Source: Fidelibacterota bacterium UBA2242 (GTDB lineage Bacteria > Fidelibacterota > UBA2242). Taken from it: a DNA stretch of 64,000 bases. Numbering within the stretch: the first letter of the stretch is position 1; the number at the start of each line of letters is the position of its first letter. Below, one piece after another: positions 3,603 through 55,380 of the stretch. The stretch covers positions 271,685-335,684 of the forward strand of contig DDYE01000017.1 of the NCBI GenBank assembly GCA_002347855.1, read 5' to 3'. A model generated the notes under the pieces. That model made no database searches. It was given only the letters and a program-made list of their open reading frames with translations, and had not been told where the DNA came from. The position numbers and the translations under genes are program-made.

Positions 3603-3836
3603 ATGAAAGAGTTCGTCGAATTCATCGTTAAGAGATTAGTTGATCATCCTGATGAAGTAAAGGTATCCCAAATTGACAGTGAAAAGACTGTAATTTTGGA
3701 ACTGCAGGTAAAAGAAGGCGATTTAGGTAAGGTCATTGGCAAGAAGGGACGCACTGCCAAAGCCATTCGAACGCTCTTAACAGCCGCAGCCGCCAAGCAA
3801 GGACAGAAACGCGCCATTTTAGAGATTATTGAATAA
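3603..3836 (+). CDS. KH-domain RNA-binding protein (UPF0109/YlqC-like)
   Basis: 77 aa with [18 protein letters not shown], a KH GXXG motif. Conserved position between rpsP and rimM. GAGGAG RBS. Confidence 0.7.
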
Positions 3837-3838
3837 CT

Positions 3839-4351
3839 TTGAGGATGACGAAGGTAGCACTTACCCTAATTGGGTCTATCCTCAAGGCGCGTGGTTTAAA
3901 AGGGGAGGTGCTACTGAAAGTTCATTCACAAAGTGTTGAAATTAACCAGAATCTCAAGGTGGTTTGGTTGGGTGAGGATGACGACCACCTTTATCCGTGG
4001 GAAGTAGAATACTTACGGATAAGAGAAAAATCTGCTTTTTTGAAATTGCGAGCTATTAATTCCCGGAGTGAAGCGGAGTATCTAAAAAATCTTTCTGTTT
4101 ACGTACCAGTCGATGATTTGAAAGAACCGGAATATTCAACGCTAATCGGTTTTCGTGTAAAAGCTCATGATTGGTCAGAAATTATCGGCGAAATTACAGC
4201 CTTTGATGATACAGGCAAGCAGGCTCAATTTACCGTACAAGTTGGACAAAAAAACCTGCTTTACCCGGCTGTAACCGAGCTTATTGGTGCAATTGACTGG
4301 GATAATCGGACGGTATGCTTGAATATGATTGAGGATTTGATAAATCTATGA
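3839..4351 (+). CDS. rimM: Ribosome maturation factor RimM (probable start ATG 3845)
   Basis: MTKVALTLIGSILKARGLKGEVLLKV... RimM N-terminal motif. Stop overlaps the trmD start. Confidence 0.85.
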   Translation: MRMTKVALTLIGSILKARGLKGEVLLKVHSQSVEINQNLKVVWLGEDDDHLYPWEVEYLRIREKSAFLKLRAINSRSEAEYLKNLSVYVPVDDLKEPEYSTLIGFRVKAHDWSEIIGEITAFDDTGKQAQFTVQVGQKNLLYPAVTELIGAIDWDNRTVCLNMIEDLINL

Positions 4352-9017: not shown

Positions 9018-9884
9018 ATGTTAGAAGAAGGGCCATCAAAAAAAAATCTTCCCTTCTCTGCCAGTGGTATTTTAAAACGCTACCTTGAAGAAATTAGTCG
9101 CGAACAGCTGCTGACACCAGCTGAGGAAATCGAATTAGCCATTAGAGTAAAAAATGGTGATCCAGAAGCACTGGATAAATTTTTAAGAGCGAATCTCCGC
9201 TTCGTTGTTTCCGTAGCAAAAAAATATCAGAATCACGGGCTTTCTCTGGAAGACCTAATTAACGAAGGAAATATTGGATTAATTAAAGCTGCTAAACGCT
9301 ACGATGAAACGCGTGGTTTTAAATTTATTTCGTACGCCGTCTGGTGGATCAGGCAAACCATTTTGCAGGCTATTTCTGAATATGCTCGCCTCGTTCGCTT
9401 ACCGTTAAATGTGGTTGGTAATATCAACAAAATTTCAAAAGCAAAAGCTAATTTTGAGCGCGATTTTGAACGCGAGCCAACCGAAGAAGAAATTGAAGAA
9501 ATACTGTGGAATGAAAATATTGACCTGGATTTGACGCGGCAGCTTAGTGAAAAACCACTCAGTATTGATTCTCCTCTTACTCAGGACAATAGCTGCACTT
9601 TACAAGACGTTATTCCGGGGCAAGAGGAATTTGATCCAGTTTTTCATATCAACGAAGAATCGTTTCAACTGGAAATTCAGCAAGCGTTGAATACTTTAGA
9701 GAAAAGGGAAGCCGAAGTTTTACGGCGTTATTTTGGTATCGGACAAGAATCACCTGAGTCACTTGAGCAAATCGGTGCTGCTCTCAATTTGACTCGTGAA
9801 CGTGTACGGCAGATAAAAGAAAAAGCCTTGCGCAAACTGCGACATAGTTCTCGTACATTTTATTTACGAGGTTATCTTGGATAA
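9018..9884 (+). CDS. rpoD: RNA polymerase sigma-70 family factor (short primary-like, RpoD/SigA-type, lacks region 1.1)
   Basis: Region 2 DLINEGNIGLIKAAKRYDETRGFKFISYAVWWIRQTI and region 4 LEQIGAALNLTRERVRQIKEKALRKLR. 288 aa, like the short housekeeping sigma of FCB-group bacteria. Confidence 0.75.
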   Translation: MLEEGPSKKNLPFSASGILKRYLEEISREQLLTPAEEIELAIRVKNGDPEALDKFLRANLRFVVSVAKKYQNHGLSLEDLINEGNIGLIKAAKRYDETRGFKFISYAVWWIRQTILQAISEYARLVRLPLNVVGNINKISKAKANFERDFEREPTEEEIEEILWNENIDLDLTRQLSEKPLSIDSPLTQDNSCTLQDVIPGQEEFDPVFHINEESFQLEIQQALNTLEKREAEVLRRYFGIGQESPESLEQIGAALNLTRERVRQIKEKALRKLRHSSRTFYLRGYLG

Positions 9885-10967: not shown

Positions 10968-12284
10968 ATGACCCAGAGAAAATACTATATAGAGACTTAC
11001 GGTTGTCAAATGAATGCTGCGGACTCTGAGTTAGTTGCCGGTCTATTAGAAGAAATGCAATTGGTTGCTTGTTCTGATCCATCAGATGCAGATTTAATTA
11101 TCGTTAATTCGTGTAGTGTAAGGGCTGGTGCCGATGCCCGTGCCCTGGCGCGTCTATCCCAGTTTAAAAGTTTAAAAGCTCAAAACCCACGGCTGCGCTT
11201 GGGATTAATTGGATGCGTGGCGCAGCGCGACAAAGGTAAAATTATTGCCCAGAGACCCTATATTGATTTTGTCTTGGGACCTGATTCATACCGTCAAATT
11301 CCTACGATTATTAATGATTTGTCCACGCCTGTAGTACAAACCCATCTCTCTTGCATCGAAACTTATGAAGGCTTATTACCGCGGCGGCAGAAGGGAGTCA
11401 ATGCCTGGATACCAATCATGCGCGGTTGTAACAAGTTTTGTTCATTTTGCATTGTTCCCTACGTGCGTGGGCGTGAACGTAGTCGCTCAGTTGATAGCAT
11501 TCTCCAGGAAGTCAAACAGGCTGTGAGTGATGGCTTCAAGGAAGTCACTTTACTCGGGCAAAATGTAAATTCTTATCAATATGAATCTTATCGGTTTGCG
11601 GATCTTTTAGATGCGATTGCAAGAGTGGAAGGATTGTACCGAATCCGCTATACCTCGCCTCATCCTGCTGATATCAGTATCTACTTACTGGAAGTCATGC
11701 GTGCTCATAAAAACATTTGTAAGCATATTCATTTACCGCTGCAGGCAGGTTCGGATAGAATCTTGCAAGCCATGAACCGCAATTATACCCAGAATCATTA
11801 CCTACAGCTAGTCGAGACCATTAGAAAATATTTGCTTGATGTAGCTATTACGACCGATATTATCGTTGGTTTTCCGGGAGAGACGGAGAGTGACTTTTTA
11901 CAGACAGTCAAAGTAATGGAAACGGTAATTTTCGATGCAGCTTTTATGTTTCAATATTCACCGCGGCCGGGTACGAAAGCGGCACAATTGGTTGATGATG
12001 TTCCACTAGCCGAAAAGCAAAAGCGTCTTGAACAAATAATTGCCTTGCAGAAAATGCATACTTTGCAACGCAATCAAGCTCTTGTTGGGACAGTGCAGGA
12101 AATATTGATTGAGGGTAATAGTAAAAAGCGTCCTGGAGAAAAAATTGGGCGCACCGACACAAACAAAATAACCATAATTAAAAATGGCCAGGCTGAAATC
12201 GGCTCGTTAGTCGAGGTGAGAATTGACAAAGCGCTGGGCGTATCTCTTTTTGGAAGTGTTTTAAACCAAGAGAGGGCAAAATGA
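10968..12284 (+). CDS. miaB: tRNA-i6A37 methylthiotransferase MiaB (radical SAM MTTase)
   Basis: YYIETYGCQMNAADSE N-terminal MTTase motif, radical-SAM CNKFCSFC and a C-terminal TRAM-like region. Could alternatively be a RimO-type paralog. Confidence 0.75.
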   Translation: MTQRKYYIETYGCQMNAADSELVAGLLEEMQLVACSDPSDADLIIVNSCSVRAGADARALARLSQFKSLKAQNPRLRLGLIGCVAQRDKGKIIAQRPYIDFVLGPDSYRQIPTIINDLSTPVVQTHLSCIETYEGLLPRRQKGVNAWIPIMRGCNKFCSFCIVPYVRGRERSRSVDSILQEVKQAVSDGFKEVTLLGQNVNSYQYESYRFADLLDAIARVEGLYRIRYTSPHPADISIYLLEVMRAHKNICKHIHLPLQAGSDRILQAMNRNYTQNHYLQLVETIRKYLLDVAITTDIIVGFPGETESDFLQTVKVMETVIFDAAFMFQYSPRPGTKAAQLVDDVPLAEKQKRLEQIIALQKMHTLQRNQALVGTVQEILIEGNSKKRPGEKIGRTDTNKITIIKNGQAEIGSLVEVRIDKALGVSLFGSVLNQERAK

Positions 12285-14568: not shown

Positions 14569-14660
14569 GGGAATGAATGCAACCCCGGTGGGTGCCGCGG
14601 TCTTCAAAATCGTCGTCCCGCCAATAGGCGGGAGCTGGGTTCGACTCCCAGGCGTTCCCG
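14569..14660 (+). tRNA. selC: tRNA-Sec (anticodon UCA, selC-like), CCA not encoded
   Basis: Hand-folded. Acceptor GGGAATGA/GCGTTCCC (7 bp plus one mismatch at the 8th pair). Anticodon loop cTTCAaa gives UCA, identical to E. coli selC. Long variable arm tcccgcc-aata-ggcggga (7 bp). T-arm ctggg-ttcgact-cccag. Confidence 0.7.
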
Positions 14661-14789
14661 CAAAAATCTTGCGCTCCTTTAGCTGATTAGCGATTTGGCG
14701 GGGGAAATAGTTCAGGTTGATATCCAATCATTAAATTGGTTATTGGAAATTTGAGATAATATTGCTAAAATTTCCACGTTATTTGATTA

Positions 14790-14882
14790 AATGAGGTCCA
14801 GGGGTGCTATCCCGGCAAATTGGGACGGCTGAGAAATTACCCTTTGAACCTGATCTGGATAATACCAGCGAAGGGAGGTCGT
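14790..14882 (+). promoter_or_regulatory. TPP (thiamine pyrophosphate) riboswitch, THI element
   Basis: ccaGGGGUGCuaucccggcaaauugggacgGCUGAGAaauuACCCuuugaACCUGAUCUGGAUAAUaCCAGCGaAGGGAgg matches the conserved THI-box cores (GGGGUGC, CUGAGA, ACCUGAUCUGGAUAAUGCCAGCGUAGGGA). Its 3' end overlaps the GGGAGG SD of the downstream gene. Confidence 0.85.
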
Positions 14883-17399
14883 ATGAAATGCCTTTTTTCT
14901 TTTCTTTTAATCTTTTCAATTCTTTTTTTCAGCAGCAGTGTCAACCTTTGGGGTGCTGTATCCTCTAAGCCAATTGTTATTACCGGTGAAGTAGTTTCAG
15001 CGCATAGTGCTGCTCCAATCGCCAATGTAAATATCTCGGTCGAAGGCACCCGATGGGGTTGTGCCAGTAATAAAGCTGGCATTTTTGTAATCAAGGTAGA
15101 TTCTCTTCCCGTGACCCTGTCATTCAGTCATATTGCTTTCGAGAGAAAAAATGTCAGGGTCACTCGACCTCAGGTCGGCATAATCCAGCTCGTTCCAGCG
15201 GTATTGATGGGCGAAGAAATCTTAGTCTCCGCGACTCAAGCAGTGCCCGGCAAAACACCAGTTGCCTTTACCGATTTGAACCGGATGCAAATTGAACAAC
15301 TTTATTACCATCAGGATGTACCGCTGGTTTTATCCGACCTGCCGGGTGTCTATGCTTATTCTGATGCGGGCAATGGGGTTGGTTATAGCTATCTCAAAAT
15401 CAGAGGCTTTCAGCAGAGTCAGTTAGGAGTGCTGCTTAATGGCATTCCTTTAAATGACCCTGAAGAGCACGCCGTCTATTGGGTTGACCATGGTGACATC
15501 CTTGCCTCGAGCAGCAGTATTCAGGTCCAGCGTGGGGTTGGTAACTCTCTCTATGGTACTTCTGTGTTTGGCGGTACTGTTAATGTTGTGACCAATACCA
15601 GCAGCCTACCACGGGGTACAACTTTGAATCTCGGTTATGGCAATTACATGGAAAAGGGATTGGATTTGCCATCGCAAAAAATTGCCTTCAGCTATAATGG
15701 TTCCCTACCTAAAAATCTGTCACTGTATCTACGCCTATCCCATCTGACTAGTGCTGGTTATCGTCAGAGTAGCGGTACAGACCAAAATTCATTGCATTTG
15801 AGTCTCGAACAATCGCTAAAAAACAGATTGACTCGCCTGGAAGTTCTGTTAGGAGTAGAAAATACTGGTTTTGCTTGGGAAGGTATTGCTCCAGTATACG
15901 GTTATAATCTTAAAAACCGTCAGCAGCGACGCTATAATTTTTATGCTGACCCTGAATATAATGGTGGTTTAACGAATGCTAATAAGGATGTTTTCCGGCA
16001 GGGACTCTTTTCGCTGCAACATAGTCGGATTATAAATCATGTTTTGTTGAATCTAACTCTCTATGCGGTTCAGGGTAATGGTTATTATGAACAATTCAAG
16101 GGTAAGCGTGATGTTGAGGAATACAATTTAGTCAGCCTATTCCCAGATGTAGTACATAAAGTTGATTTAATCCGACAAAAGTGGCTGCAAAACGGCTACT
16201 GGGGTACGCTTTATCAAATTACCCTTCCGCTTAAAAGTTGCCAATTGACCCTGGGCGGTGATATGCGCATTTATGAAGCAGCTCACTTTGGACGAGTTAA
16301 AAAAGTCCTCAAAGAGTACTTGCCCAATGATAGTACGATTTCGCAATCAACCTTTCCGCCTGCTAACCATAAGTATTATCAAACTGACCGAGAAAAAAAA
16401 TCAATTTCCTTTTATGTTCACAGCTATTTTGATTTAACGCCACGCTTAGGTCTGATGTTTGATGGGCGTTATTTGGGGCATCGCTATTCCTATATCCAGC
16501 GCCGCCTTGGTGTTTATACTCAGGGATACCGCTTTAAACTCAAGTACGATTTCTGGGATCCGCATATCGGCGTCAATTATCGCCTGACTGATTATTGTTC
16601 CATTTTTAGCAATATCTCCACTGCTCACCGTGAACCAACAGACGATGATATTTATAAACAAGATAGTCCGGAGGATGTGCCCAAATTGACTCATTTAGAG
16701 CGAGAGTATGCTGAGCCGCTGGTCAAACCCGAATATTTAATTGACTACGAAGCGGGACTTAAGTTTGATTTACCTGCTACTAAACTGCAAATTAATCTCT
16801 ATCGCATGGATTTTCGTGATGAATTAATCCCGGTGGAATATCGTTACTATGATGCCGACCAGGTATTTCATGCCAATATTGACCGCACAGTTCATCAGGG
16901 AGTTGAGTTGAGCTTTACTCAGCGCTGGCGATGGTTATTGTGGGATGCTAATTTGTCTTATGCTGACAACCATTTTGTGAATTTTCAGGCGGATTCCATT
17001 GGCTGGAGTGGTTGGGGACCAATTGCGGATTATAGTGGAAAAGTCATTCCCGCCTATCCCACCTGGCAAGCCAAGAGTCGCCTTAGTTTGAAATTGGCTG
17101 ATAATGAACTCTGGTTGCAGACAATCTATACTGGCAAGCAGTATATTGACTTTGCGAATACTTCCGCTGCAGCCATCAAGCCCGTTACGTTAGTGAATGT
17201 CGGGTTGAATTATCACCTACCCTTGAAGAAGTATTTCAAGGCAACACTTGCTTTCAGGATTAACAATCTATTCGACAAACTTTACGAGACTTTTGGCTAT
17301 AACTACTATGAAGACTGGGATGATCATTTACAACGCATAGACCTCTATTGGCCAGCTGCTACTCGTAACTATTATCTATCTCTGGTCGTGAATTTTTAA
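14883..17399 (+). CDS. TonB-dependent outer-membrane receptor (predicted thiamine/thiamine-precursor transporter)
   Basis: Start ATG just after the riboswitch-embedded SD. Signal peptide MKCLFSFLLIFSILFFSSSVNLWGA. Plug region plus a long beta-barrel ending in an aromatic C-terminus (...YLSLVVNF), typical TBDT terminus. The tool ORF begins upstream at 14820. Confidence 0.8.
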   Translation: MKCLFSFLLIFSILFFSSSVNLWGAVSSKPIVITGEVVSAHSAAPIANVNISVEGTRWGCASNKAGIFVIKVDSLPVTLSFSHIAFERKNVRVTRPQVGIIQLVPAVLMGEEILVSATQAVPGKTPVAFTDLNRMQIEQLYYHQDVPLVLSDLPGVYAYSDAGNGVGYSYLKIRGFQQSQLGVLLNGIPLNDPEEHAVYWVDHGDILASSSSIQVQRGVGNSLYGTSVFGGTVNVVTNTSSLPRGTTLNLGYGNYMEKGLDLPSQKIAFSYNGSLPKNLSLYLRLSHLTSAGYRQSSGTDQNSLHLSLEQSLKNRLTRLEVLLGVENTGFAWEGIAPVYGYNLKNRQQRRYNFYADPEYNGGLTNANKDVFRQGLFSLQHSRIINHVLLNLTLYAVQGNGYYEQFKGKRDVEEYNLVSLFPDVVHKVDLIRQKWLQNGYWGTLYQITLPLKSCQLTLGGDMRIYEAAHFGRVKKVLKEYLPNDSTISQSTFPPANHKYYQTDREKKSISFYVHSYFDLTPRLGLMFDGRYLGHRYSYIQRRLGVYTQGYRFKLKYDFWDPHIGVNYRLTDYCSIFSNISTAHREPTDDDIYKQDSPEDVPKLTHLEREYAEPLVKPEYLIDYEAGLKFDLPATKLQINLYRMDFRDELIPVEYRYYDADQVFHANIDRTVHQGVELSFTQRWRWLLWDANLSYADNHFVNFQADSIGWSGWGPIADYSGKVIPAYPTWQAKSRLSLKLADNELWLQTIYTGKQYIDFANTSAAAIKPVTLVNVGLNYHLPLKKYFKATLAFRINNLFDKLYETFGYNYYEDWDDHLQRIDLYWPAATRNYYLSLVVNF

Positions 17400-33001: not shown

Positions 33002-34009
33002 ATGGTCTATCTGGTTACGGGTGGGGCTGGTTTCATCGGTAGTAATTACATTCATTATCTTTTTCGGCGCTACCAGAATATCAAGGTCATTAATCTTGAT
33101 AAATTGACTTATGCTGGAAACTTAGCCAATCTGACTGACCTGGAAAGTAATCCTGACTATATTTTCGTCAAAGGTGACATCTGTGACCCAGCAGTAGTAC
33201 ACCAGATATTTCTTGATTATCGTCCTAATTATGTCGTGAATTTTGCGGCTGAAAGCCATGTTGACCGAAGCATCGGTAAGCCCGATGATTTTATCCGTAC
33301 CGATATGTTTGGAGTTTTTATTTTGCTGGAAGCAGCCAAGGAATTTGGCATTGACCGCTTTATTCAAATCAGCACTGATGAGGTGTATGGTTCGATTCTC
33401 AGCGGTTCTTTTACGGAAGAGTCAACCCTGCGACCGAGTAATCCCTATTCTGCTAGCAAAGCCGGCGGCGATCGTCTGGCATATTCATATTTTGCTACCT
33501 ATGGTTTGCCGGTAATTGTGACCCGAGCCTCAAATAATTACGGACCCTATCAATATCCTGAAAAGTTGATTCCTCTCTTTGTAACTAACGCCATCGAAGA
33601 CAAACCCTTACCGCTTTACGGTGATGGAAAAAACATTCGTGACTGGTTATTTGTCGAAGATCACTGTGACGCTATTGAATTTATCTTGCGGAATGGCAAG
33701 AATGGCGAAGTTTATAACATTGCTGGTGGTAGTGAAAAAGAAAATATCGAAATCACAAACCTCATTTTGGAGTTAGTTGGCAAACCTAAAAACTTAATCA
33801 GATATGTGCCAGACCGAATCGGACATGACCGGCGCTATTCACTGGATGCTACGAAATTAAAAAATTTAGGCTGGCAAGCGAGTCACAATTTCCGAGAAGC
33901 AATCGAATTAACAGTTAATTGGTATATCGAACATCCCGAATGGTGGAAACCACTCAAGAGCGGCGAATATCTCGAGTTTTATAAAAAACATTATAAAATG
34001 GAGCTGTGA
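33002..34009 (+). CDS. rfbB: dTDP-glucose 4,6-dehydratase
   Basis: MVYLVTGGAGFIGSN..., YSASKAGGD catalytic YxxxK, extended SDR. GGGAAGGGA RBS; the tool ORF starts at 32978. Confidence 0.85.
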   Translation: MVYLVTGGAGFIGSNYIHYLFRRYQNIKVINLDKLTYAGNLANLTDLESNPDYIFVKGDICDPAVVHQIFLDYRPNYVVNFAAESHVDRSIGKPDDFIRTDMFGVFILLEAAKEFGIDRFIQISTDEVYGSILSGSFTEESTLRPSNPYSASKAGGDRLAYSYFATYGLPVIVTRASNNYGPYQYPEKLIPLFVTNAIEDKPLPLYGDGKNIRDWLFVEDHCDAIEFILRNGKNGEVYNIAGGSEKENIEITNLILELVGKPKNLIRYVPDRIGHDRRYSLDATKLKNLGWQASHNFREAIELTVNWYIEHPEWWKPLKSGEYLEFYKKHYKMEL

Positions 34010-35652
34010 AAAAATTGATAAAAAGCCGTTTTTCAATCGCTTTGCTTTGTGTCCTGACATTTGCTAAGGCCCAAACTTATTTTCCAAGTTCTAACCTTTC
34101 CCAAATAAGCTCAAGCTTGGGGTTACGAACACAGACGACGGGGGCTTATGAACGTTTAACGCCGGGTGATTATCAATCCATCGACGAAAATGAGTATCAG
34201 ATAGACGCGGGTGATGAACTGACAGTCAAAATTGACCCACCCGGTCCTGAGATTAAGACATACTCTGTCAAAATAACGTCGGATGGCTACTTCGTTGTCC
34301 CAGACGCTCCTGGAATTTATCTGCGCGGTATGAAGTTGTGTGATGCCCGCCAAAAGGTCAGTAGTCATTTAAAAAAATATTGTCCCGATTCCGAAGTCGA
34401 ATTCTATCTGGAAAAAGTTCACCCCATTAAAATCAATCTTACTGGTGCTCTCGAAATTGTCAAGGATTGGAATCTGAATTCAGGCTATCGCTTGTTCGAT
34501 TTTTTAGAGCAACTGATTACCGTCTATCGCAACGACTCGCTCCTCAATCTAAAATTGAATCAGGCCTCTTTACGTAATGTCAGCCTCAAACAATCCGATA
34601 CCACTTATTCTTTTGATTGGTGGGCGTATCGAACTGAGTTAACCCAACAACCAAACCCCTATTTGAGAGATAACGATTTAATCAATATTCCTTATCGTGA
34701 TACAAGTTACTATTTGATAAGTATTGCCGGAGCGGTAGGCAATGAGACTAAGTTTGAATTTAAACCGGGTGATGATTTACATACTGCGTTGACTTTTGCC
34801 GGTAGCGTACTTCCATCGGCCGATTCTAATCGGATTGAAGTATACCGTTTTAAAGGAAAGAGTGACCAGTTCGATATTCTGACTCTCCAGATACCTCGGG
34901 ATTTGCATTTTTTGCTCCTTCCTGATGACAGGATTTATGTACGGACTAAACCGCTGTTTCATTCCAAGGCTTTTGTCATTATGACTGGAGAGCTCAAGTA
35001 TCCCGGAATTTATCCAATCGAAGAGGACCGCACAACTTTGTCCGAAGTGGTCCGGCAGGCAGGTGGTTTTTCACCTTATGCTTCAATTAAACACGCGCGC
35101 TTATATCGCATTTTAGGAGTACCCGGTGGGGCAGAACTGCGGAAATTGATTCAATCCATGCCCCAATCAATGTCTTTAAGCTGGATTGAAGGCAATTTCT
35201 GGCGCTCGGCTGCTAAAGAGAATCTCAGCATTGTTGCCTGCGATTTTGAAAAACTGTTTAATCAGAAGGATAAATCCCAGGAAGTGGTCTTGAAAAACCT
35301 GGATAAGATTTTTGTGCCTTCGACCCAATCATTTGTCTTTGTAACCGGTGCGGTGGTCAATCCAGGAACAGTCCCCTATGTCCCTAACTGGACTTATCGG
35401 GATTATATTCGTGCAGCTGGAGGAGCGAAAAATCGTGCCCGACTTGGACGTATCAAAGTCATAAAGCATAATACCGAGACTTGGTTGGATGTTAAACAAG
35501 CCAAGGAAATCGAACCGGGTGACCGCATTTTTATACCCCTAAAAGACGAACAAGAACCGTGGACGATTTTTATGCAAGGATTGACAGTTGTGACCCAAAT
35601 TATAACGATTATTATCGTGTTACGCAATATTAATCCAAAGGTGACCGGATGA
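34006..35652 (+). CDS. Polysaccharide export outer-membrane protein (Wza-like, SLBB domains)
   Basis: Signal peptide MKKLIKSRFSIALLCVLTFAKAQ, repeated beta-grasp SLBB-like segments, C-terminal TM helix. Confidence 0.6.
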   Translation: MKKLIKSRFSIALLCVLTFAKAQTYFPSSNLSQISSSLGLRTQTTGAYERLTPGDYQSIDENEYQIDAGDELTVKIDPPGPEIKTYSVKITSDGYFVVPDAPGIYLRGMKLCDARQKVSSHLKKYCPDSEVEFYLEKVHPIKINLTGALEIVKDWNLNSGYRLFDFLEQLITVYRNDSLLNLKLNQASLRNVSLKQSDTTYSFDWWAYRTELTQQPNPYLRDNDLINIPYRDTSYYLISIAGAVGNETKFEFKPGDDLHTALTFAGSVLPSADSNRIEVYRFKGKSDQFDILTLQIPRDLHFLLLPDDRIYVRTKPLFHSKAFVIMTGELKYPGIYPIEEDRTTLSEVVRQAGGFSPYASIKHARLYRILGVPGGAELRKLIQSMPQSMSLSWIEGNFWRSAAKENLSIVACDFEKLFNQKDKSQEVVLKNLDKIFVPSTQSFVFVTGAVVNPGTVPYVPNWTYRDYIRAAGGAKNRARLGRIKVIKHNTETWLDVKQAKEIEPGDRIFIPLKDEQEPWTIFMQGLTVVTQIITIIIVLRNINPKVTG

Positions 35653-36635
35653 ATGAACATGCAGTAAGACACCCGTTAATTTTCTTCATTTGGCGTCATT
35701 GGTTGCGCAATTTTCTAATTTATATTTTAATTTGTATAGCAATTTTTATCAAGATTTTCTTCTATACAGATAAGGAGTATACCGCCAGTTTGACGATTAT
35801 ACCCAGCGCTGCCAATTTTGCTTCTGGCATAAGTGGACAGGTCGGTGTATTAGCCGGTCTGGCGGGTATTAATCTTGCTAATATCTCCGGTCAGAGCCAG
35901 GAAATGTATAAGGGAATTTTGACTTCACGGCGGTTATTGACGACAGTGTTATTTGATTCATTTACCGTTAGTAATCCAACCTTACCGCAAAAAGCTCGCC
36001 TGATTGACTATCTTGATATAGAAGGGCGTGACGGGCGGGATTCTCTGGAAAAAGCCCTAAAAAAATGCAATGAAGAGGTACTCGGAATTGGTATCAATGC
36101 TGATAATAATATACTAAACCTATCTGTTACCCTGCGCGATCCCTTTCTTGCCGCTGCAGTTGCCAATCGTATGGTAATATTACTCGATGAGATCGTCCAG
36201 AAGCAGGTTCAGCGAGAATATCGCGAACAGTTTAATTATCTGACATCGCGTCTGGCTGAAACGGAAAGCAACCTGAAAGTTGCGGAAGAGAAATTGAAAA
36301 ATTTCCTGGAAAATGTACGTAATCCTAATTTACCTTCTAATCAGGTCGAAGAATTGCGCTTACGGCGGGAATTAGAATTACAATCGGTTATTTATGCCGA
36401 GCTGCAAAAACAGAAAGAGACACTGATTTTGCAGAATATGATAAACCTCAGCCATATCAAAATCCTCGACCATGCCATTCCACCGTACCGTAAGAGTAAA
36501 CCCAAGCGGGCTTTGATGCTAATAAGCTTAAGTTGTTTGGCTGCGGTTGGGTTGATAGGTGTTAATGGGAGCCTCTTAATTTATCGGAAACTTAAGCAGG
36601 ATTTTAATCACAGTCAGCTTGAACTTGAAAAATAA
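35649..36635 (+). CDS. Chain-length determinant (Wzz/PCP-like) protein
   Basis: N- and C-terminal TM helices flanking a coiled-coil-rich periplasmic region (AETESNLKVAEEKLKNFLENV...). Confidence 0.5.
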   Translation: MNEHAVRHPLIFFIWRHWLRNFLIYILICIAIFIKIFFYTDKEYTASLTIIPSAANFASGISGQVGVLAGLAGINLANISGQSQEMYKGILTSRRLLTTVLFDSFTVSNPTLPQKARLIDYLDIEGRDGRDSLEKALKKCNEEVLGIGINADNNILNLSVTLRDPFLAAAVANRMVILLDEIVQKQVQREYREQFNYLTSRLAETESNLKVAEEKLKNFLENVRNPNLPSNQVEELRLRRELELQSVIYAELQKQKETLILQNMINLSHIKILDHAIPPYRKSKPKRALMLISLSCLAAVGLIGVNGSLLIYRKLKQDFNHSQLELEK

Positions 36636-37923
36636 CCATTTCCGGCAATATCTCAACAATCGGGAATACCGCAAATTGGCATTTAACTTTACCAATTTTG
36701 GGGTATTTCAGGTCATTAATTATATAATTCCCTTAGTAGTCATTCCATATATTGTACGCGTCATTGGAGTTGAGAAGTTTGGTATCATAAGCTTTGCTCA
36801 AGCTATTTGCTACTATCTACTGATTGTTGTTGAGTATGGTTTTACAATAACTGGTGTCCAACTAATTGCCCAAAATCGTCATAATCAAGCCAAACAGTCT
36901 GAGATATTTTCATCGATAATTATTATTCAAATATTGCTTATGATACTTGGCTTGGCTCTCATCGGGTTAGGAGCACTCCTTTTTCAAGAGGTGCGCCAAT
37001 ATTTTTTGATTTATCTTTTTTCCTATTTGTTGATTCCAGGACAAATAATGGTCGCCCTCTGGTTTTTTATCGGGGTAGAGGAGATGCAGTATCTCAATTA
37101 TGTTAATCTCATTGCCCGCTTAAGCTATATTGCCTTAGTATTTTTATTAGTTCATCACGAAAGTGACTATCCTCGGATTCCTTTGCTTAATGGCATTTCC
37201 TATATTCTGGGAGGGATTTTTAGTCTGGGATTTATCTTTCGCAAATTTAAAATCCGTTTGCAACTGGTTGGAATAGATAAACTGTGGTTTTATTTAAAAG
37301 ACGGGTGGCATCTCTTTGTATCCAATTTTGCTATTAACTTATATCGTAACTCAAATGTAGTCCTCCTCGGTCTGGTCGCCAGTAAAGAGGTTGTCGGCAT
37401 TTATAGTGCTGGTGAGAAAGTAATAAAAGTATTTCAGTCGGTATTTACTCCAATTACACAGACTCTATTTCCATATTTCTCGCGAATTAAAACATCTCAT
37501 CCTGAACGGAGTTTACGATCTATTAAGCTCTTATTAAGAGTTATGTCGCTATTTGCAGGGACGATTACTGTTCTATTAATGCTGGGAGCCAAGCCCTTGA
37601 CAATCCTCATTCTGGGTAAAAGTTTTCTATCCGCCCAGGCAATAATTAAAATCACAGCCGCGGTAGTAACTCTGGGTGTCTTGAATTACATCCTGGGCAT
37701 TATATTTATGACCAATTACGGTCTAAAGCGTGAATTTTCACGGAGTGTTCTTTTGACGGGTGTGTTCAATCTCTTTATTTGTCTCGGACTGTCCTATTTT
37801 TGTCAAGCTATAGGCGCAGCCATAGCCTTCACGGCTGCGGAATTTTTTCTCTTTACTCTTTTAGTTTATTTTATCTTGCGTAATAAATCAAAATGGATGC
37901 AGACTGATGATTTCCAAAGTTGA
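36619..37923 (+). CDS. Oligosaccharide-unit flippase (Wzx-like polysaccharide biosynthesis protein)
   Basis: Polytopic, about 12 TM, 434 aa; position and composition typical of Wzx/MOP-superfamily flippases. Confidence 0.55.
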   Translation: MNLKNNHFRQYLNNREYRKLAFNFTNFGVFQVINYIIPLVVIPYIVRVIGVEKFGIISFAQAICYYLLIVVEYGFTITGVQLIAQNRHNQAKQSEIFSSIIIIQILLMILGLALIGLGALLFQEVRQYFLIYLFSYLLIPGQIMVALWFFIGVEEMQYLNYVNLIARLSYIALVFLLVHHESDYPRIPLLNGISYILGGIFSLGFIFRKFKIRLQLVGIDKLWFYLKDGWHLFVSNFAINLYRNSNVVLLGLVASKEVVGIYSAGEKVIKVFQSVFTPITQTLFPYFSRIKTSHPERSLRSIKLLLRVMSLFAGTITVLLMLGAKPLTILILGKSFLSAQAIIKITAAVVTLGVLNYILGIIFMTNYGLKREFSRSVLLTGVFNLFICLGLSYFCQAIGAAIAFTAAEFFLFTLLVYFILRNKSKWMQTDDFQS

Positions 37924-38971
37924 GCCACTCGTAACTATTATCATCTTAAACTGGAATAAATGGCAAGATACAGTCGAATGTCTCGCAAGCTTGAGCCATC
38001 TTACTTATCCTAATTATCGTATTGTGCTGGTCGATAATAATTCACTTAATGATTCTGTGACTCAGATAAAGGCTTTCTTAACGGGTCAGAGAGTGGAAGG
38101 CATTCAGACTCATTTCTCTCAATTGGTTGAAAGACCCGATATGACCAAACTGCAATTCATGATTCAAAAGATTGATAATTACCCATTCGATTATTCCTCT
38201 TTTCAAGATGACAGCGGGCAACATTTATGGTTGTTGCTTTCGGAAAACCTTGGTTTTGCGCGGGCAAATAACTTAGCAATTGCAATAGCTAGCCAGCTCT
38301 ATAACCCGGATTATTTCTTTTTGTTGAACAATGATACTGTCGTTGAACCTGATGCCGTGACGCATTTAGTGACGGCTATGACTTCCGACGCGACGATTGC
38401 CGCGGCGCAACCGGTCATTTACTATTATTCTAATCCCGTTCAGATTGCCAATGCGGGAGGCATAATTTTGCCCTGGGGACAGACACGCTATTATACCAAA
38501 ATTAGAGCCCATACCTGGCAGAAAATTACGTTCATCAATGGTTGTGCCCTTTTTTTACGTCGAGAAACTATCGAAAAGTTCGGCGCACTCACCGAGCGTT
38601 TCTTTTTTGCGGAAGAGGATTTTGAATATAGTCTACGCTTAAAACGGCAGCGTGCCAGGGCAATTTGTGTTGCTGATAGTAAGATATATCATAAAATCGG
38701 AGCATCAGAGATTGCACAAAATATTGAACGGAAAGTGGTTTTATTTGCCGTCAACCGGCTGGTTGACCTGAAACATTACTATGTGCCTATTATCTGGCGT
38801 TTCTGGGCAAGCCTTAGTTTGCTCTATTTCTGGGGTCTCTTGTTTTTTAAATATCGGGTTGGCTGGAAAAAGTCTGCTAATCTAATTTCTGAAGCCAGGC
38901 AATGGGTTCATCAAGTTTCTGAAGTTGATAAAGATACGGTTATGGCAATTCTCCGAAGGGGCGTTCAGTGA
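37907..38971 (+). CDS. Glycosyltransferase family 2
   Basis: VTIIILNWNKWQDTVECLASL...YRIVLVDNNS, a GT-A N-terminal motif, and a DxD-like FAEEDFE. Confidence 0.7.
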   Translation: MISKVEPLVTIIILNWNKWQDTVECLASLSHLTYPNYRIVLVDNNSLNDSVTQIKAFLTGQRVEGIQTHFSQLVERPDMTKLQFMIQKIDNYPFDYSSFQDDSGQHLWLLLSENLGFARANNLAIAIASQLYNPDYFFLLNNDTVVEPDAVTHLVTAMTSDATIAAAQPVIYYYSNPVQIANAGGIILPWGQTRYYTKIRAHTWQKITFINGCALFLRRETIEKFGALTERFFFAEEDFEYSLRLKRQRARAICVADSKIYHKIGASEIAQNIERKVVLFAVNRLVDLKHYYVPIIWRFWASLSLLYFWGLLFFKYRVGWKKSANLISEARQWVHQVSEVDKDTVMAILRRGVQ

Positions 38972-40248
38972 TTTTACAACTCACCAGTTTAATGTTTGCG
39001 GGAATTGTAACCTGTCTGACAGTTTTTGATAAGCGTCGCCTTAATACTATTTTAACGCCCTTCACAGTAACTGCCTGGCCCTTTGTGATAATATCTTTGT
39101 TGGTCAATTTTGTTCTGGTTTTTCTACAATTCAAGCCAATGACTCTGCGGGTACATTTTTTTATTTTAGCGAATTTGCTCATCCTCTGGCTTAGTGGTTT
39201 TGTGCTTGCCTTTTTTGTCAATGGAGGCAACCAGAGATTAGATGAGACTCCTTTGAGCGCTATTTTCAAGGTGTTTGCATCTTACGAACTTTTTCTTGTG
39301 ACAGTTAGTTGGTTAATTATTGTTGTGACTCTCTATCGGGCTTATAGCCTGCTAAGGATTTATGGTGGATTTACCTTCTTAGGTGACTATCGTTTTGAAG
39401 AATTGATGATTGTTGGTCCCGTTGCCCATCTTGTGCAAGTTGGTAAGGTCTGTTTTCTTTTGCTCTGCTTTATTTATAAGAATTCTAAGCACAAAGTGTT
39501 AATTTGGTTGACGCTGGCTGGATTGTTCATTGCTATTGCTGCTATTCAGGTGAAATACCATCTGCTCTGGTTGTTAATCATAGCGTACTTTTTCTATTAC
39601 CTTGAGAAGCCGGTAAAACAGCAGGTCAAAAATTTACTTTTAGTTATGTTTAGTGTGATAGTAATTATGAATTTGTTCTGGATTCTGCTGACCTTAGCGT
39701 GGGGGACTTTCTCCATTTCCAGTCGAGGTATCCATGAATTTTTAATTAAACAGACCATGAATTATATTACAACCGGTCCAGTAGCCTTAGACCAGTGGTT
39801 ATCGCATGGAGACTGTAAGCCAGAGTGGACGCTTTTGCTCGTATTCCTGAATTTGAAAAATGTAATTATGGGTAATCCTCTCCGGTTAAGTGGTTTAAAC
39901 TATGTCAATCTGGGTTTTATCGAGACGGGTCCAGGTTTGAGTTCTAATGTTGGTACCGCGTACGGGGTATATTATCTCATTGGTGGCTGGGTGTTTACTC
40001 TTTTTATGACAACCATAGTTTCGCTTTTTTCATACTGGATATTTTACAAAACTCGGCAGCGGAAAAATCCTTACTTAGTATTTTTTAATCTTCTGGCATT
40101 AACCTTAGGAGTTTTGACTTTTTTCGTCCAGTATTTTACTCTCCTGTCACTTTACGAAATGACAGCAATCTATATGTTCTTAATTGCCGTTTTTCAGTTC
40201 TTGAATTATATGAAAGCCCAACAATTACCGATAGAGTTAAGCCATTGA
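38968..40248 (+). CDS. Polytopic membrane protein, candidate O-antigen/oligosaccharide polymerase (Wzy-like)
   Basis: About 11-12 TM helices with a larger loop near the C-terminal third. Locus context with Wzx and Wzz. Confidence 0.45.
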   Translation: MILQLTSLMFAGIVTCLTVFDKRRLNTILTPFTVTAWPFVIISLLVNFVLVFLQFKPMTLRVHFFILANLLILWLSGFVLAFFVNGGNQRLDETPLSAIFKVFASYELFLVTVSWLIIVVTLYRAYSLLRIYGGFTFLGDYRFEELMIVGPVAHLVQVGKVCFLLLCFIYKNSKHKVLIWLTLAGLFIAIAAIQVKYHLLWLLIIAYFFYYLEKPVKQQVKNLLLVMFSVIVIMNLFWILLTLAWGTFSISSRGIHEFLIKQTMNYITTGPVALDQWLSHGDCKPEWTLLLVFLNLKNVIMGNPLRLSGLNYVNLGFIETGPGLSSNVGTAYGVYYLIGGWVFTLFMTTIVSLFSYWIFYKTRQRKNPYLVFFNLLALTLGVLTFFVQYFTLLSLYEMTAIYMFLIAVFQFLNYMKAQQLPIELSH

Positions 40249-41351
40249 ACGACGCAATACAGAATCTACGAGTGTTATTAGTCGGAGGATATCCACCGCC
40301 CTATGGGGGTGTAACTGTGCATATTCAACGTCTGCAGCATTATTTGAATAGAGCTGGCGCTAATTGCCTCGTGCTAAATCAGTTCCGTAGTGAGGGGCAA
40401 CCATCTGGGAATATAATTAATCTTTCTGGTGGGAGGTTGGCGCAGTATTTTAAGATGCGGGCTTTGTTAACCAGGACGGACGCTCAAATTATCCATTTTC
40501 ACTTTTCTAAATTGGGTAATTTCTTAATCGGGGGGAGGCATTTAATTAAAGCGGCTGGTAAGGCTATATGTGTGGCAACCTGTCATTCAGGGCAATTAGC
40601 GGTAGAGTTTGCCCACCGCCATAAATTTTATCGGTTGGCAGCAATTGATCTTATTCGGGCATTTGATCACCTGATTGCCGTGAACCCTCAGCAGGTGGAA
40701 TTTTATACTAAAGTTATTGGGATTGAAGCGATACGCGTCAGTCTAATACCAACCTTCATTCTGCCAGAAAGTAGTCAGATTGAATTGCCTCAAGCGATGC
40801 TTAATAAGGTTACTGCCCTACGAAAATGTTGCCGTTGGATTTTGATGGTCAGCGGTTATTTATTGCCATATTATGGTTTTGATTTGTTTCTGGAGGCAGT
40901 TGCTAATTTAGAACGACTCTATCATGCCAAATTTGGGCTGATTTTTATATTTTATACTAAGGCTGATGAGAATTATCGCCAATTATTATTAGCAAAAATT
41001 GAAAAACATGGTTGTAGTCTAGTCTACGAGAATATTAAGCCAAATGACTTTCTGGGGTTATTACAGCAGAGCGATCTTTTTGTGCGTCCTACTCTGGCGG
41101 ATTCTTTCGGCGTATCAGTCGCGGAGGCTTTATATCTGGGAACACCAGTGGTAGCCAGCGATGTCTGTGCGCGACAAGAAGGGGCGGTGCTTTTCAGAAG
41201 TGGTGATGTGCAGGATTTAGTAGCCAAAATTCGGGCGGTAATTGAAAATTATGCAAATATCAAAGCCACACTTACCGAAATTAATCTTCCAAATAACGCT
41301 GAGCAATTGCTGGCTTTATACTACGAGCTTATTAAACAGGGGGAAAAATGA
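40245..41351 (+). CDS. Glycosyltransferase family 4 (GT-B)
   Basis: LLVGGYPPPYGGVTVH N-terminus; C-terminal ...RPTLADSFGVSVAEALYLGTPVVASD (EX7E-like) motif. Confidence 0.7.
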   Translation: MNDAIQNLRVLLVGGYPPPYGGVTVHIQRLQHYLNRAGANCLVLNQFRSEGQPSGNIINLSGGRLAQYFKMRALLTRTDAQIIHFHFSKLGNFLIGGRHLIKAAGKAICVATCHSGQLAVEFAHRHKFYRLAAIDLIRAFDHLIAVNPQQVEFYTKVIGIEAIRVSLIPTFILPESSQIELPQAMLNKVTALRKCCRWILMVSGYLLPYYGFDLFLEAVANLERLYHAKFGLIFIFYTKADENYRQLLLAKIEKHGCSLVYENIKPNDFLGLLQQSDLFVRPTLADSFGVSVAEALYLGTPVVASDVCARQEGAVLFRSGDVQDLVAKIRAVIENYANIKATLTEINLPNNAEQLLALYYELIKQGEK

Positions 41352-43474
41352 AGCAGATTGTGCAACATTTAAAAAATGGAAGCATAGAGCTTGCGGAAGT
41401 ACCACGACCAATAGTTACCCGTGGTAAAGTATTAATCAAGACGCAGCTTAGTCTAATTTCGGTCGGAACTGAAAGGATGTTAGTCGAATTTGGTCGCTCA
41501 GGTTGGCTTGCTAAAGCCCAACAGCAACCAGATAAGGTACGTCAGGTTTTAGATAAAATTAAAACTGATGGTCTCATTGCGACGATTGAGGCTGTTACTG
41601 CCAAATTAGATGAACCAATGCCTTTAGGCTATTGTAATGTCGGGGAAATTGTGGAGATTGGCGAAGGTGTGACAGATTTACAAATTGGTGATCGTGTCGT
41701 TTCAAATGGTCCCCACGCCGAATTTGTAACTGTTTCTCAAAACTTGTGTGTTCGTATTCCAGACAGCGTGCCCGATGAAACGGCTGTTTTTACTGTCCTT
41801 GGTTCAATTGGTTTACAGGGGATTCGACTGGCTCAACCTAGTCTCGGAGAAACATTTGTCGTGACAGGTTTAGGTTTGATTGGTCTTCTGTCGGTTCAAA
41901 TCCTCCTGGCTAATGGTTGTAAAGTTATAGGTATTGATGTAAATCCCCAGCGAGTGGCTTTAGCGCGCCGCTTTGGAGCATACGCAATCAATGTCAGTAA
42001 AGAAGATCCTGTCGCAATCTGTGCTGCTTTGACGAATGGTAAAGGGGTGGACGGCGTACTGATTACGGCAGCCACTAAAAGTAACGAGCCGATTCACCAG
42101 GCTGCTCAAATGGCTCGTAAGCGTGGCAGAATTGTATTGGTTGGTGTAACAGGATTGGAACTCAATCGGGCAGATTTTTATGAAAAGGAACTAAGTTTTC
42201 AGGTTTCTTGTTCCTATGGTCCGGGCAGATATGATGAAAATTATGAGCAAAAGGGACAGGACTATCCTGTCGGTTATGTGCGCTGGACTGAAAGGCGCAA
42301 TTTTGAAGCAATTTTGGATTTAATGGCAACTAATAAATTAGATGTTCAACCGCTTATAAGCCATGTTTATCCATTTCAGCAAGCAGGCGAGGCTTACGAT
42401 ACCATAATGCAAAAGAGAGATGCGCTCGGTGTGATATTAGAGTACAAACCAAAAGTTCAAGATGAATCTGTGCGCATCGAGGTTAAGTCGGCAATATTAA
42501 AGACTGCTGCTCCCGCGGTCAATGTTGGCGTAATTGGAGTTGGTAACTACGCCAAACTTATGTTGCTACCGGCTCTTAAAGAAACAGGTGTAAATTTGAG
42601 CAGTGTGGCTGATATTGTGCCATTAGACGCAAGTTATGCCGCTCGTAAATTTGCTTTTCAGACTGCTACCAGTGATTATCATACTATTTTAGCTGATGAA
42701 GACATCAACACGGTATTTATTACCACCCGCCACGATTTACATGCCCGCTTAGTTTGTGAATTTCTTACTGCGGGTAAGAATGTTTTTGTCGAGAAGCCGC
42801 TGGCGTTGAATAAAGAGGAGTTAAGAAAAGTCGAAGAAATCTATCTGAAAGCCGATAGCCGCTTGATGGTCGGATATAATCGGCGCTTTGCTCCCCAGGT
42901 CATCAGAATGAAAGAATTGCTGATAGACAGAAGCGAACCTATTTGTATCAATATTCTGGTTAATGCGGGATACATACCGCCTGAACATTGGGTTCATGAT
43001 CCCCTGGTTGGTGGCGGACGAATCATTGGTGAGGGGTGCCATTTTGTGGACTTGATTGCTTTTTTATGTTGTAGTAAGGTGGTACAGGTTAGCGCTATTG
43101 GAGTTAGAGGCGATTATTTGCGTGACAAGGTCAGTATTAACCTGCGACTCGCTGATGGCTCAATCGGAACTATTCAATACTTAGCCAATGGCAATAAACA
43201 ATATCCTAAGGAAACAGTACAAGTTTTCAGTTCAGGACGAATCCTGGAACTCGTGAATTTTCGCAAATTAGTTGGTTATGGCTGGAAAGGTTTTCGAAAA
43301 TTTAATTTATGGAAACAAGATAAAGGGCATAAGGCAGAAATCAAAGCCTTTATCACGGCGATTTGCACTGGACAAGTTGCACCAATATCGTTCGAGGAAA
43401 TGAAAAACACAAGCGAAGCAACTTTTGCTATCATGGAAGCCCTGGAATCAAAACAGACCGTCGAAATAAAATGA
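41348..43474 (+). CDS. Bi-domain oxidoreductase: N-terminal zinc-type alcohol dehydrogenase (MDR) fused to C-terminal Gfo/Idh/MocA NAD(P)-oxidoreductase
   Basis: N-terminal half has MDR-like GVTDLQIGDRVVSNGPHAEFV and VTGLGLIGLLSVQIL; C-terminal half has VGVIGVGNYAKLMLLPAL and VFVEKPLALN Gfo/Idh/MocA motifs. Confidence 0.75.
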   Translation: MKQIVQHLKNGSIELAEVPRPIVTRGKVLIKTQLSLISVGTERMLVEFGRSGWLAKAQQQPDKVRQVLDKIKTDGLIATIEAVTAKLDEPMPLGYCNVGEIVEIGEGVTDLQIGDRVVSNGPHAEFVTVSQNLCVRIPDSVPDETAVFTVLGSIGLQGIRLAQPSLGETFVVTGLGLIGLLSVQILLANGCKVIGIDVNPQRVALARRFGAYAINVSKEDPVAICAALTNGKGVDGVLITAATKSNEPIHQAAQMARKRGRIVLVGVTGLELNRADFYEKELSFQVSCSYGPGRYDENYEQKGQDYPVGYVRWTERRNFEAILDLMATNKLDVQPLISHVYPFQQAGEAYDTIMQKRDALGVILEYKPKVQDESVRIEVKSAILKTAAPAVNVGVIGVGNYAKLMLLPALKETGVNLSSVADIVPLDASYAARKFAFQTATSDYHTILADEDINTVFITTRHDLHARLVCEFLTAGKNVFVEKPLALNKEELRKVEEIYLKADSRLMVGYNRRFAPQVIRMKELLIDRSEPICINILVNAGYIPPEHWVHDPLVGGGRIIGEGCHFVDLIAFLCCSKVVQVSAIGVRGDYLRDKVSINLRLADGSIGTIQYLANGNKQYPKETVQVFSSGRILELVNFRKLVGYGWKGFRKFNLWKQDKGHKAEIKAFITAICTGQVAPISFEEMKNTSEATFAIMEALESKQTVEIK

Positions 43475-54102: not shown

Positions 54103-55380
54103 ATGTTAGACTTGAAAGCTATACGTTCTGAACCTGAAAAATTCCTGCGGTTATTAGAAGCCAAAGGCGCTGCTGAGAACTTGAACCGGCTCCTCGACCT
54201 GGATTACCAGCGGCGTCAGTTAGTGACAAAAACCGATGAGTTAAAAAGTCTGCGCAATCGCGTAAGCGACGAGATAGCCCGGTTAAAAAGAGCGGGAGCA
54301 GCAGCTGAAGATAAAATTAAAGAAATGAAATCCGTCAGCCTGCAGATAAAAGAGCAGGATGAGCAAATCCGCTCACTTGAAGAGCAAATTCACCAGATAT
54401 TAATCACACTCCCCAATATACCCCACGCTTCTGTTAAAATAGGACGAAGCGCGGCTGACAACGAGGTGGTAAAAATCTGGGGAGAGGTGCCGACTTACGA
54501 TTTTCCACTTAAAGATCATCTCGATTTAGCGGAGAATCTTGGTATTATTGATTTCAAGCGGGCGGCGAAAATTTCGGGAACTGGTTTCCCGCTTTATGTC
54601 GGAGACGGGGCAGTTTTGGAGCGGGCGCTAGTAAATTTCATGCTGGATTTTCATCGTAAAAAACACGGCTACCGTGAAGTTTTTCCACCATTTCTGGTCA
54701 ATCGTGATTCTGCCTTCAGTACCGGTCAATTGCCTAAACTCGAAGAAGATATGTACTTGACCAGTGAAGATGACTTATTCTTAATTCCAACTGCCGAGGT
54801 TCCGGTCACCAATATTCATCGCGACGAAATCATACCTGAAAACAAGTTGCCAATCAAATATGTCGCCTATTCCGGCTGTTTCCGTCGGGAAGCTGGTTCT
54901 TATGGCAAAGAGACGCGCGGTCTTTCTCGGGTGCATCAATTTAATAAAGTCGAATTGGTCTGGTTCACGATCCCGGAAACATCCTATGACGTTCATGAGA
55001 AGTTACTGCAAGATGCTGAGGAAATTTTACAAGCATTAAATTTACACTATCGAGTTGTCTCACTGTGCTCGGGTGATTTGAGTTTTGCGGCAGCAAAATG
55101 CTATGATATTGAAGTCTGGGCGCCTGGGACAGGTAAATATTTTGAGGTTTCAAGCGTTAGTAACTTTGAGGATTTTCAGGCTCGACGGGCAAATATTCGT
55201 TACCGCCGCTCGGGCGATAATAGAGTTGGTTATGTGCATACCCTGAATGGTTCCGGAGTAGCAACACCCCGACTGATGATTGCCCTTTTGGAGACCTATC
55301 AGACTGACGAGGGAACAATCGTAGTTCCGGAAGCTCTGCAACCTTATACTGGTTTTAGTTTGATTAAAACTACGGTTTGA
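54103..55380 (+). CDS. serS: Seryl-tRNA synthetase
   Basis: MLDLKAIRSEPE... N-terminal coiled coil; class II motifs FRRE and GSG-TPR. The tool ORF starts at TTG 54055, but ATG 54103 has a GGAG RBS. Confidence 0.9.
   Translation: MLDLKAIRSEPEKFLRLLEAKGAAENLNRLLDLDYQRRQLVTKTDELKSLRNRVSDEIARLKRAGAAAEDKIKEMKSVSLQIKEQDEQIRSLEEQIHQILITLPNIPHASVKIGRSAADNEVVKIWGEVPTYDFPLKDHLDLAENLGIIDFKRAAKISGTGFPLYVGDGAVLERALVNFMLDFHRKKHGYREVFPPFLVNRDSAFSTGQLPKLEEDMYLTSEDDLFLIPTAEVPVTNIHRDEIIPENKLPIKYVAYSGCFRREAGSYGKETRGLSRVHQFNKVELVWFTIPETSYDVHEKLLQDAEEILQALNLHYRVVSLCSGDLSFAAAKCYDIEVWAPGTGKYFEVSSVSNFEDFQARRANIRYRRSGDNRVGYVHTLNGSGVATPRLMIALLETYQTDEGTIVVPEALQPYTGFSLIKTTV

Follow-up and report, generated by a model that had tools for sequence, protein, structure and literature searches.

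A selC gene for tRNA-Sec at a clade-conserved site in an uncultured Marinimicrobia-lineage bacterium

Can a tRNA gene whose surroundings contain no recognisable selenocysteine machinery be accepted as a working selC? This question is raised by a short segment of the window, the whole 64,000-nucleotide stretch of DNA that was analysed, for which a preliminary description had proposed a selC-like tRNA with anticodon UCA at positions 14569-14660 and, with it, evidence for selenocysteine decoding. The answer reached here is that the segment is, with high probability, the functional selC of an uncultured bacterium of the Marinimicrobia lineage, deployed in the SECIS-dependent decoding of UGA codons.

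14569-14660, + strand: selC, the gene for tRNA-Sec, 92 nt from G1 to G73 (ARAGORN; Rfam RF01852; minimum free energy cloverleaf; synteny in 16 relatives)

When applied to the complete 64 kb window, ARAGORN returned a single tRNA, designated tRNA-SeC(tca) and located at 14569-14661. The Rfam tRNA-Sec model RF01852 matched 14569-14659 over model positions 1-91 of 91 with a score of 58.7 bits (gathering score 47) and an E-value of 2.5e-9; the equivalent tRNAs of relatives scored 56.0-60.5 bits. The gene runs from G1 at 14569 to its discriminator, G73, at 14660, exactly as first proposed. The two predictors independently assigned selenocysteine, and neither returned another identity, the outcome by which the preliminary description would have been refuted. 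Folding of the 92 nt to minimum free energy gave the expected cloverleaf (-42 kcal/mol). Since predictors do produce false positives, and the energy z-score of -2.46 relative to shuffles is by itself modest, a chance cloverleaf or a spurious prediction in an intergenic spacer had to be considered. Against this stand the E-value, obtained with a score above the curated threshold, the agreement of ARAGORN, and covariation in relatives (vide infra); such an origin has a negligible probability and can be regarded as refuted. Taken together, the covariance-model E-value, the z-score of the cloverleaf, and conservation accompanied by compensatory changes place the selC signal far beyond chance.

Relatives were sought by two routes. 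Metagenomes were scanned with a pattern taken from the D and anticodon arms, and the 120 loci obtained fell into two groups: group A, with the acceptor GGGAAUGA, comprised 12 distinct sequences from the lineage of the window, and group B, drawn from other lineages, comprised 72 distinct sequences. Look-ups of exact proteins, together with a scan based on LapB, yielded copies of the same locus plus one relative (L005) with a syntenic tRNA-Sec, the scan of genome contigs contributing a single relative at 59% LapB identity. The arms of the window tRNA, as compared with these sequences, are as follows.

14569-14576, + strand: 5' strand of the acceptor, GGGAAUG plus A8, positions 1-7 of which pair with 14653-14659
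14576 and 14652, + strand: non-canonical eighth acceptor layer, A8 opposite G (lineage alignment)
14579-14595, + strand: D arm, GCA(A)CCC, loop CGGU, GGGUGC, with a 6 bp stem and an extra nucleotide at 14582 in its 5' strand
14596-14615, + strand: anticodon arm, with a 6 bp stem, a bulged pyrimidine at 14613 in its 3' strand, and the loop CUUCAAA
14604-14606, + strand: anticodon TCA (UCA), which reads UGA (ARAGORN, position 36; the sequence itself)
14616-14633, + strand: long variable arm, 7 bp UCCCGCC/GGCGGGA with loop AAUA (minimum free energy fold)
14635-14651, + strand: T arm, 5 bp CUGGG/CCCAG with loop UUCGACU (invariant in the lineage; Rfam alignment)

The individual arms corresponded closely to the preliminary description, which had specified a 7 bp variable arm (confirmed, with a 4-nt loop), a 5 bp T stem, and a 7(+1) bp acceptor, the last of these now resolved into seven canonical pairs followed, at position eight, by A facing G. 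Acceptor pairs 1-7 were canonical in all 12 distinct group A sequences, while the eighth layer was A·G in 11 of them and A·A in the remaining one, with a standard pair in none. The acceptor and T helix together comprise 13 nt per strand, with eight residues separating the 5 bp T stem from G73; the 13-layer geometry probably holds, as judged from the sequences, despite the non-canonical eighth layer. The window tRNA is thus probably of the 8/5 type with a non-canonical junction layer, and not of the 7/5 type. The linker is AU.

The D stem of group A consists of 3 + 3 bp around the extra nucleotide, which is A in eight sequences and U in four; all six pairs are canonical, and two of them show compensatory changes (C-G to U-A and A-U to C-G). 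An alternative register, in which position 14 pairs with 24 to leave a 5-nt loop, is less consistent with the CGGU loop common to E. coli and another lineage. The anticodon stem of the same group consists of 4 + 2 bp around the bulged pyrimidine, and pair 29-46 is A-U in seven sequences, G-C in three and G·U in two. A stem drawn without the bulge was rejected, as it yields C·U or C·C and A·C mismatches. The CUUCAAA loop, identical to that of E. coli selC as originally noted, is invariant in the 84 related sequences, having itself been part of the search pattern, and G73 is present in all 84 (groups A and B). In the variable arm, 5 of the 12 group A sequences carry a compensatory change from C-G to U-A.

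Five features expected of a bacterial tRNA-Sec were thus present: a score above the RF01852 threshold, UCA in a 7-nt loop, G73, a long variable arm, and a 6 bp D stem closed by a 4-nt loop. Two prior studies give G73, as recognised by SerRS, and the 13-layer acceptor/T helix as identity criteria for tRNA-Sec (PMC5330540, PMC4605307).

With E. coli selC the window tRNA shares UCA within CUUCAAA, the CGGU loop on a 6 bp D stem, the long variable arm, the 5 bp T stem with its UUCGACU loop, and the eight nucleotides between T stem and G73. It differs in the eighth acceptor pair (A·G, as against C-G in E. coli), in the extra nucleotide of the D-stem 5' strand and the bulged pyrimidine of the anticodon-stem 3' strand, in the first T-stem pair (C-G, as against G·U), and at the 3' end (GCAA, as against GCCA). 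The bases that follow G73 in the window are CAA, so that CCA is not encoded; nor is it encoded in any of 14 tRNA-Sec genes of the lineage, where G73 is followed by C and then by A, T or G, whereas the bacterial survey in PMC5330540 reports an encoded CCA in 93% of tRNA-Sec genes. The base that precedes G1 is T in 13 of the same 14 genes.

Irregular stems are not without precedent: as described in PMC5330540, bulges at 43a and 13a as well as variants with a 12 bp (7/5) branch are already established among bacterial tRNA-Sec. The unusual variants recorded there with Secmarker retain G73, as does the window tRNA, which differs from them in having eight residues with a non-canonical eighth layer. 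The 'Cloacimonetes type' of the same account has no linker nucleotide, unlike the window tRNA with its AU. The window tRNA sequence itself was not found in the Secmarker supplements.

Two further classes of tRNA might have been mistaken for tRNA-Sec, since a long variable arm and an extended acceptor are common to both, and some of their members carry a UCA anticodon (PMC7609411, PMC5389517): tRNA-Cys of the selC* type, and the serine-charged allo-tRNAs, either of which would make the locus a selenium-free opal suppressor or recoder. Whereas selC* tRNA-Cys is characterised by U73, an 8/4 fold and an A51a bulge (Mukai et al. 2017; PMC7609411), the window tRNA has G73 and a bulge-free 5 bp T stem; and whereas allo-tRNAs have a 12 bp branch of 8/4 or 9/3 form (PMC5389517, PMC7609411), the window tRNA is 8(7+1)/5 with 13 layers. 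Furthermore, no gene resembling selB* or cysS* lies downstream, where a TPP riboswitch and a TonB-dependent receptor come next, and Marinimicrobia are not among the phyla listed for these classes (PMC7609411). A look-alike of this kind is accordingly extremely improbable, and the identity of the window tRNA is taken hereafter as tRNA-Sec.

The gene, its fold and its identity features, together with its conservation under selection, are matters of direct observation, the last being evident from the relatives. All stems were fully canonical in the 12 distinct group A sequences. Both partners had changed in four pairs, of which the D stem contributed two and the anticodon stem and variable arm one each. 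The corresponding covariation score was 0.152, compared with 0.087 ± 0.011 in shuffled controls, none of 500 shuffles reaching 0.152; sliding of the 3' partners, deployed as a further control, reduced pairing to 35-54%. The gene occupies the same place, after a gene for a SPOR-domain protein, in 16 related loci. The identity of these tRNAs to that of the window was 80-95%, compared with approximately 47-63% for the 90 nt on either side, and the neighbouring proteins shared only 31-72% identity with their counterparts in the window. The gene order M23-miaB-lapA-lapB-SPOR-tRNA-(TPP riboswitch-TonB-dependent receptor)-polA was kept in the clade. The tRNA was retained at its site in every group A locus that shows the neighbouring genes, and also in L140, L142 and L146; it was still present in relatives with LapB identities of 44-49%, including one that has neither riboswitch nor receptor (L142). 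The sequences thus point clearly to purifying selection on selC across the clade.

The boundary of this arrangement was evident from a yet more distant locus, L145 (9942-10132; LapB 34%), where miaB-lapA-lapB-SPOR is kept with no tRNA after the SPOR gene, and from which it follows that the position of selC is specific to the clade. In L142 (LapB 44%), the tRNA-Sec at 11962-12055 lies between the SPOR gene and polA, riboswitch and receptor being gone, and its acceptor combines a standard C-G eighth pair with U facing U in pairs 5 and 6. In L004, a public JGI annotation places a 47-aa ORF across the tRNA-Sec gene (3816-4003), a call that is almost certainly spurious.

The lineage itself was identified from protein and sequence matches. 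Homologues of LapB with 49-60% identity carry the names Candidatus Neomarinimicrobiota or Marinimicrobia, and the CG08 Marinimicrobia MAG GCA_002774355.1 is syntenic with the window over more than 20 kb. Smithella (Syntrophales), which GC content and habitat had at first suggested, was rejected on the strength of these two results. The window sequence matches contig Ga0310375_1000002 of JGI 3300028923 (1,670,136 bp), in which it occupies roughly 290,828-354,827, and the same sequence is present in the metagenome of an oil-sands tailings pond (PMC5029510).

By way of contrast with this well-conserved tRNA gene, its presumed partners were sought in the vicinity to no effect. NCBIfam models applied to approximately 60 ORFs, and tblastn with E. 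coli SelA, SelB and SelD, confirmed the absence of selA, selB and selD from the window, and exact-protein look-ups and Pfam labels indicated no sel genes in the 10 kb on either side of it. When all fetched loci were searched by tblastn with the same three proteins, matches were obtained only in four unrelated, GC-rich metagenome loci; a search with a SelA profile, for which 8000 candidates were scored, gave Enterobacteriaceae exclusively among the best 120 listed matches. No gene with an in-frame UGA and a SECIS was detected in the window, a six-frame scan for TGA read-through having produced three trivial cases. The preliminary description had likewise reported no selenoprotein candidate in the window, and this holds in that no TGA joins two real-gene stretches of at least 50 codons; its further statement, that two pairs of adjacent same-frame ORFs are separated by TAA, was right as to the stop codon and too low as to the count, there being five such pairs on the gene-bearing + strand, all of them split by TAA. 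TGA terminates 15 of 50 ORFs of the window, and its use there as an ordinary stop fits context-dependent recoding.

These results introduce the alternative that the gene is an orphan or relic, left behind after the loss of SelA, SelB and SelD in an organism devoid of selenoproteins. In its favour are the lack of any sel gene or selenoprotein candidate in the approximately 84 kb around selC, the mismatched eighth acceptor pair, and the observation, reported in PMC5330540, that sel genes and selenoproteins accompany unusual tRNA-Sec candidates 'with few' exceptions. Distance from the sel genes is, on the other hand, commonplace: sel genes are commonly unlinked to selC, and in E. coli selC, selAB and selD occupy three separate loci. 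A relic would also have to be reconciled with the retention of the site in 16 diverged relatives with compensatory changes in the stems, with an invariant anticodon loop and T arm and with pairs 1-7 that depart from canonical form only in L142, the most distant relative, at the same time as the flanks diverged to near-random identity. Nor is the mismatch a sporadic lesion, since it too is conserved, either as A·G or as A·A.

A comparable purine·purine mismatch was moreover encountered in selC genes that adjoin sel genes. G·G occupies the eighth layer in 6 of the 72 group B sequences, among them those of the four GC-rich metagenome loci: in L110 and L078, selC adjoins selD, selA and selB, while the short L016 includes selA alone and L093 selD alone. 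The tRNAs of these four loci resemble that of the window in G73, in the purine·purine eighth pair, and in a D-loop and anticodon-arm sequence that is identical because it constituted the search pattern; the acceptor of L110 and L016 (GGGAAUG.../...CGUUCCC) is nearly that of the window. They differ in their GC-rich hosts, in lacking the extra D-stem nucleotide, in a longer variable arm, in a first T-stem pair that is mostly G·U, and in the adjacency of sel genes. Given G·G in selC genes so placed, a purine·purine eighth layer is compatible with a working Sec system. A relic is on balance very unlikely, and a functional selC remains the preferred reading.

Upstream on the same strand run genes for an M23 peptidase, miaB, lapA, lapB and the SPOR-domain protein, and downstream of the tRNA lie a TPP riboswitch, the TonB-dependent receptor and polA. 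A scan restricted to promoters of the sigma-70 type found none just upstream of the tRNA, and no terminator-like site follows the gene. Because the tRNA begins 5 nt after the stop codon of the SPOR-domain gene, co-transcription with the upstream genes is probable. E. coli selC is a known site for the integration of islands, whereas no insertion is apparent at the window selC; a genomic island was considered and rejected, since neither an integrase nor inserted DNA lies at the 3' end and the downstream genes are those of relatives.

Several features of this neighbourhood merit record in their own right. The TPP riboswitch (RF00059, 66.5 bits) at 14790-14893 (+) lies directly upstream of the TonB-dependent receptor gene at 14883-17399, with the Shine-Dalgarno sequence and ATG of which its 3' end overlaps; a sigma-70-like promoter match at 14743-14771 precedes it. 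The receptor has CarboxypepD_reg, Plug and barrel domains, and the arrangement of riboswitch and receptor is kept in L005. As read from the sequence, the locus suggests outer-membrane uptake under the control of thiamine. The miaB gene (10968-12284, +), which codes for the methylthiotransferase acting on i6A37 of tRNA, shares its strand with the tRNA-Sec and lies four genes before it. A36-A37-A38 is the usual context of i6A-modified tRNAs and is present in the window tRNA, and the proximity of miaB is conserved in the clade; the closeness of the two genes is nevertheless probably coincidental. A short sigma factor of the RpoD/RpoS type (9018-9884, +; 288 aa) includes regions 1.2 to 4 without region 1.1, a composition that fits affiliation of the organism with the FCB group.

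The window otherwise contains housekeeping genes, namely ffh, rpsP, trmD, rplS, groESL, a sigma factor gene, alr, cmk and rpsA, together with tsaD, serS, xseA and nadK. It also includes a long, same-strand cluster for polysaccharide or LPS biosynthesis (31644-53979, +), with genes for a UDP-glucose dehydrogenase, a dTDP-glucose dehydratase, a LegC-like aminotransferase, a NeuD-family acetyltransferase and two sugar phosphotransferases, one of them a WecA-like/EPS fusion of 861 aa. For six ORFs in succession within the cluster (34006-41351), no NCBIfam match was obtained at E < 1e-20. The 708-aa ORF at 41348-43474 (+) combines a half resembling zinc alcohol dehydrogenases with a half resembling Gfo/Idh/MocA proteins; the next listed ORF (43363-45477, +) overlaps it by approximately 110 nt and probably has a later true start, and the TGA at 43472 is an ordinary stop and not a Sec candidate.

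With one of these housekeeping genes, the window would contribute to the first step of the pathway proposed for the tRNA.

54103-55380, + strand: serS, seryl-tRNA synthetase (NCBIfam TIGR00414 at 501 bits, cut-off 301.65; start as in the public gene call)

The product is the housekeeping enzyme, not one specific to Sec, and is expected to carry out the initial loading with serine. The succession of steps envisaged is that of the bacterial Sec pathway (PMC5330540, PMC4605307, PMC3711452). The tRNA would probably be transcribed jointly with the upstream miaB-lapA-lapB-SPOR genes, and the transcript would be trimmed and only then provided with CCA. SerRS would recognise the tRNA by G73 and the long variable arm and load serine; SelA would convert the resultant Ser-tRNA to Sec-tRNA with selenophosphate generated by SelD; and SelB, recognising the 13-layer acceptor/T helix and the way in which the variable arm is oriented, would bring Sec-tRNA to those UGA codons that are followed by a SECIS hairpin. 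Charging, conversion and delivery are thus presumed from the nature of the tRNA, as are sel genes and selenoproteins elsewhere in the genome. The claim of evidence for selenocysteine decoding, with which the preliminary description began, is accordingly upheld as a deduction from the predictors, the identity features and purifying selection, and not as a demonstration.

A more ambitious interpretation is that the tRNA-Sec of this clade represents a distinct structural subtype with a functional non-canonical junction pair. Its defining features may be the purine·purine layer 8, the extra D-stem nucleotide, the anticodon-stem bulge and the absence of an encoded CCA, and the junction pair may serve, for example, as an antideterminant for EF-Tu or as a recognition element for SelA or SelB. 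The occurrence of G·G at layer 8 in sel-linked tRNA-Sec of another lineage is consistent with a functional junction pair. As a proposal drawn from aligned sequences, this subtype is a tentative one, and rather doubtful. A lesser reading is that the gene may document a Sec-decoding trait in Marinimicrobia; no paper linking Marinimicrobia with selenocysteine was found in the literature searched.

The selC identified here is correct but ordinary, a further tRNA-Sec from a phylum that has received little study. The stem irregularities of its lineage are minor additions to variation already catalogued, and the point to be made is one of annotation, adding nothing further to the biology of selenocysteine. 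For the organisms concerned it has a practical bearing: the Marinimicrobia-type bacterium of the tailings pond and its relatives are probable users of selenocysteine, and standard gene callers would as a result split or truncate their selenoprotein genes at UGA. Formate dehydrogenases, hydrogenases and redox proteins are the likely examples among anaerobes, and metabolic reconstructions based on genomes of the clade should allow for genes divided in this manner by UGA.
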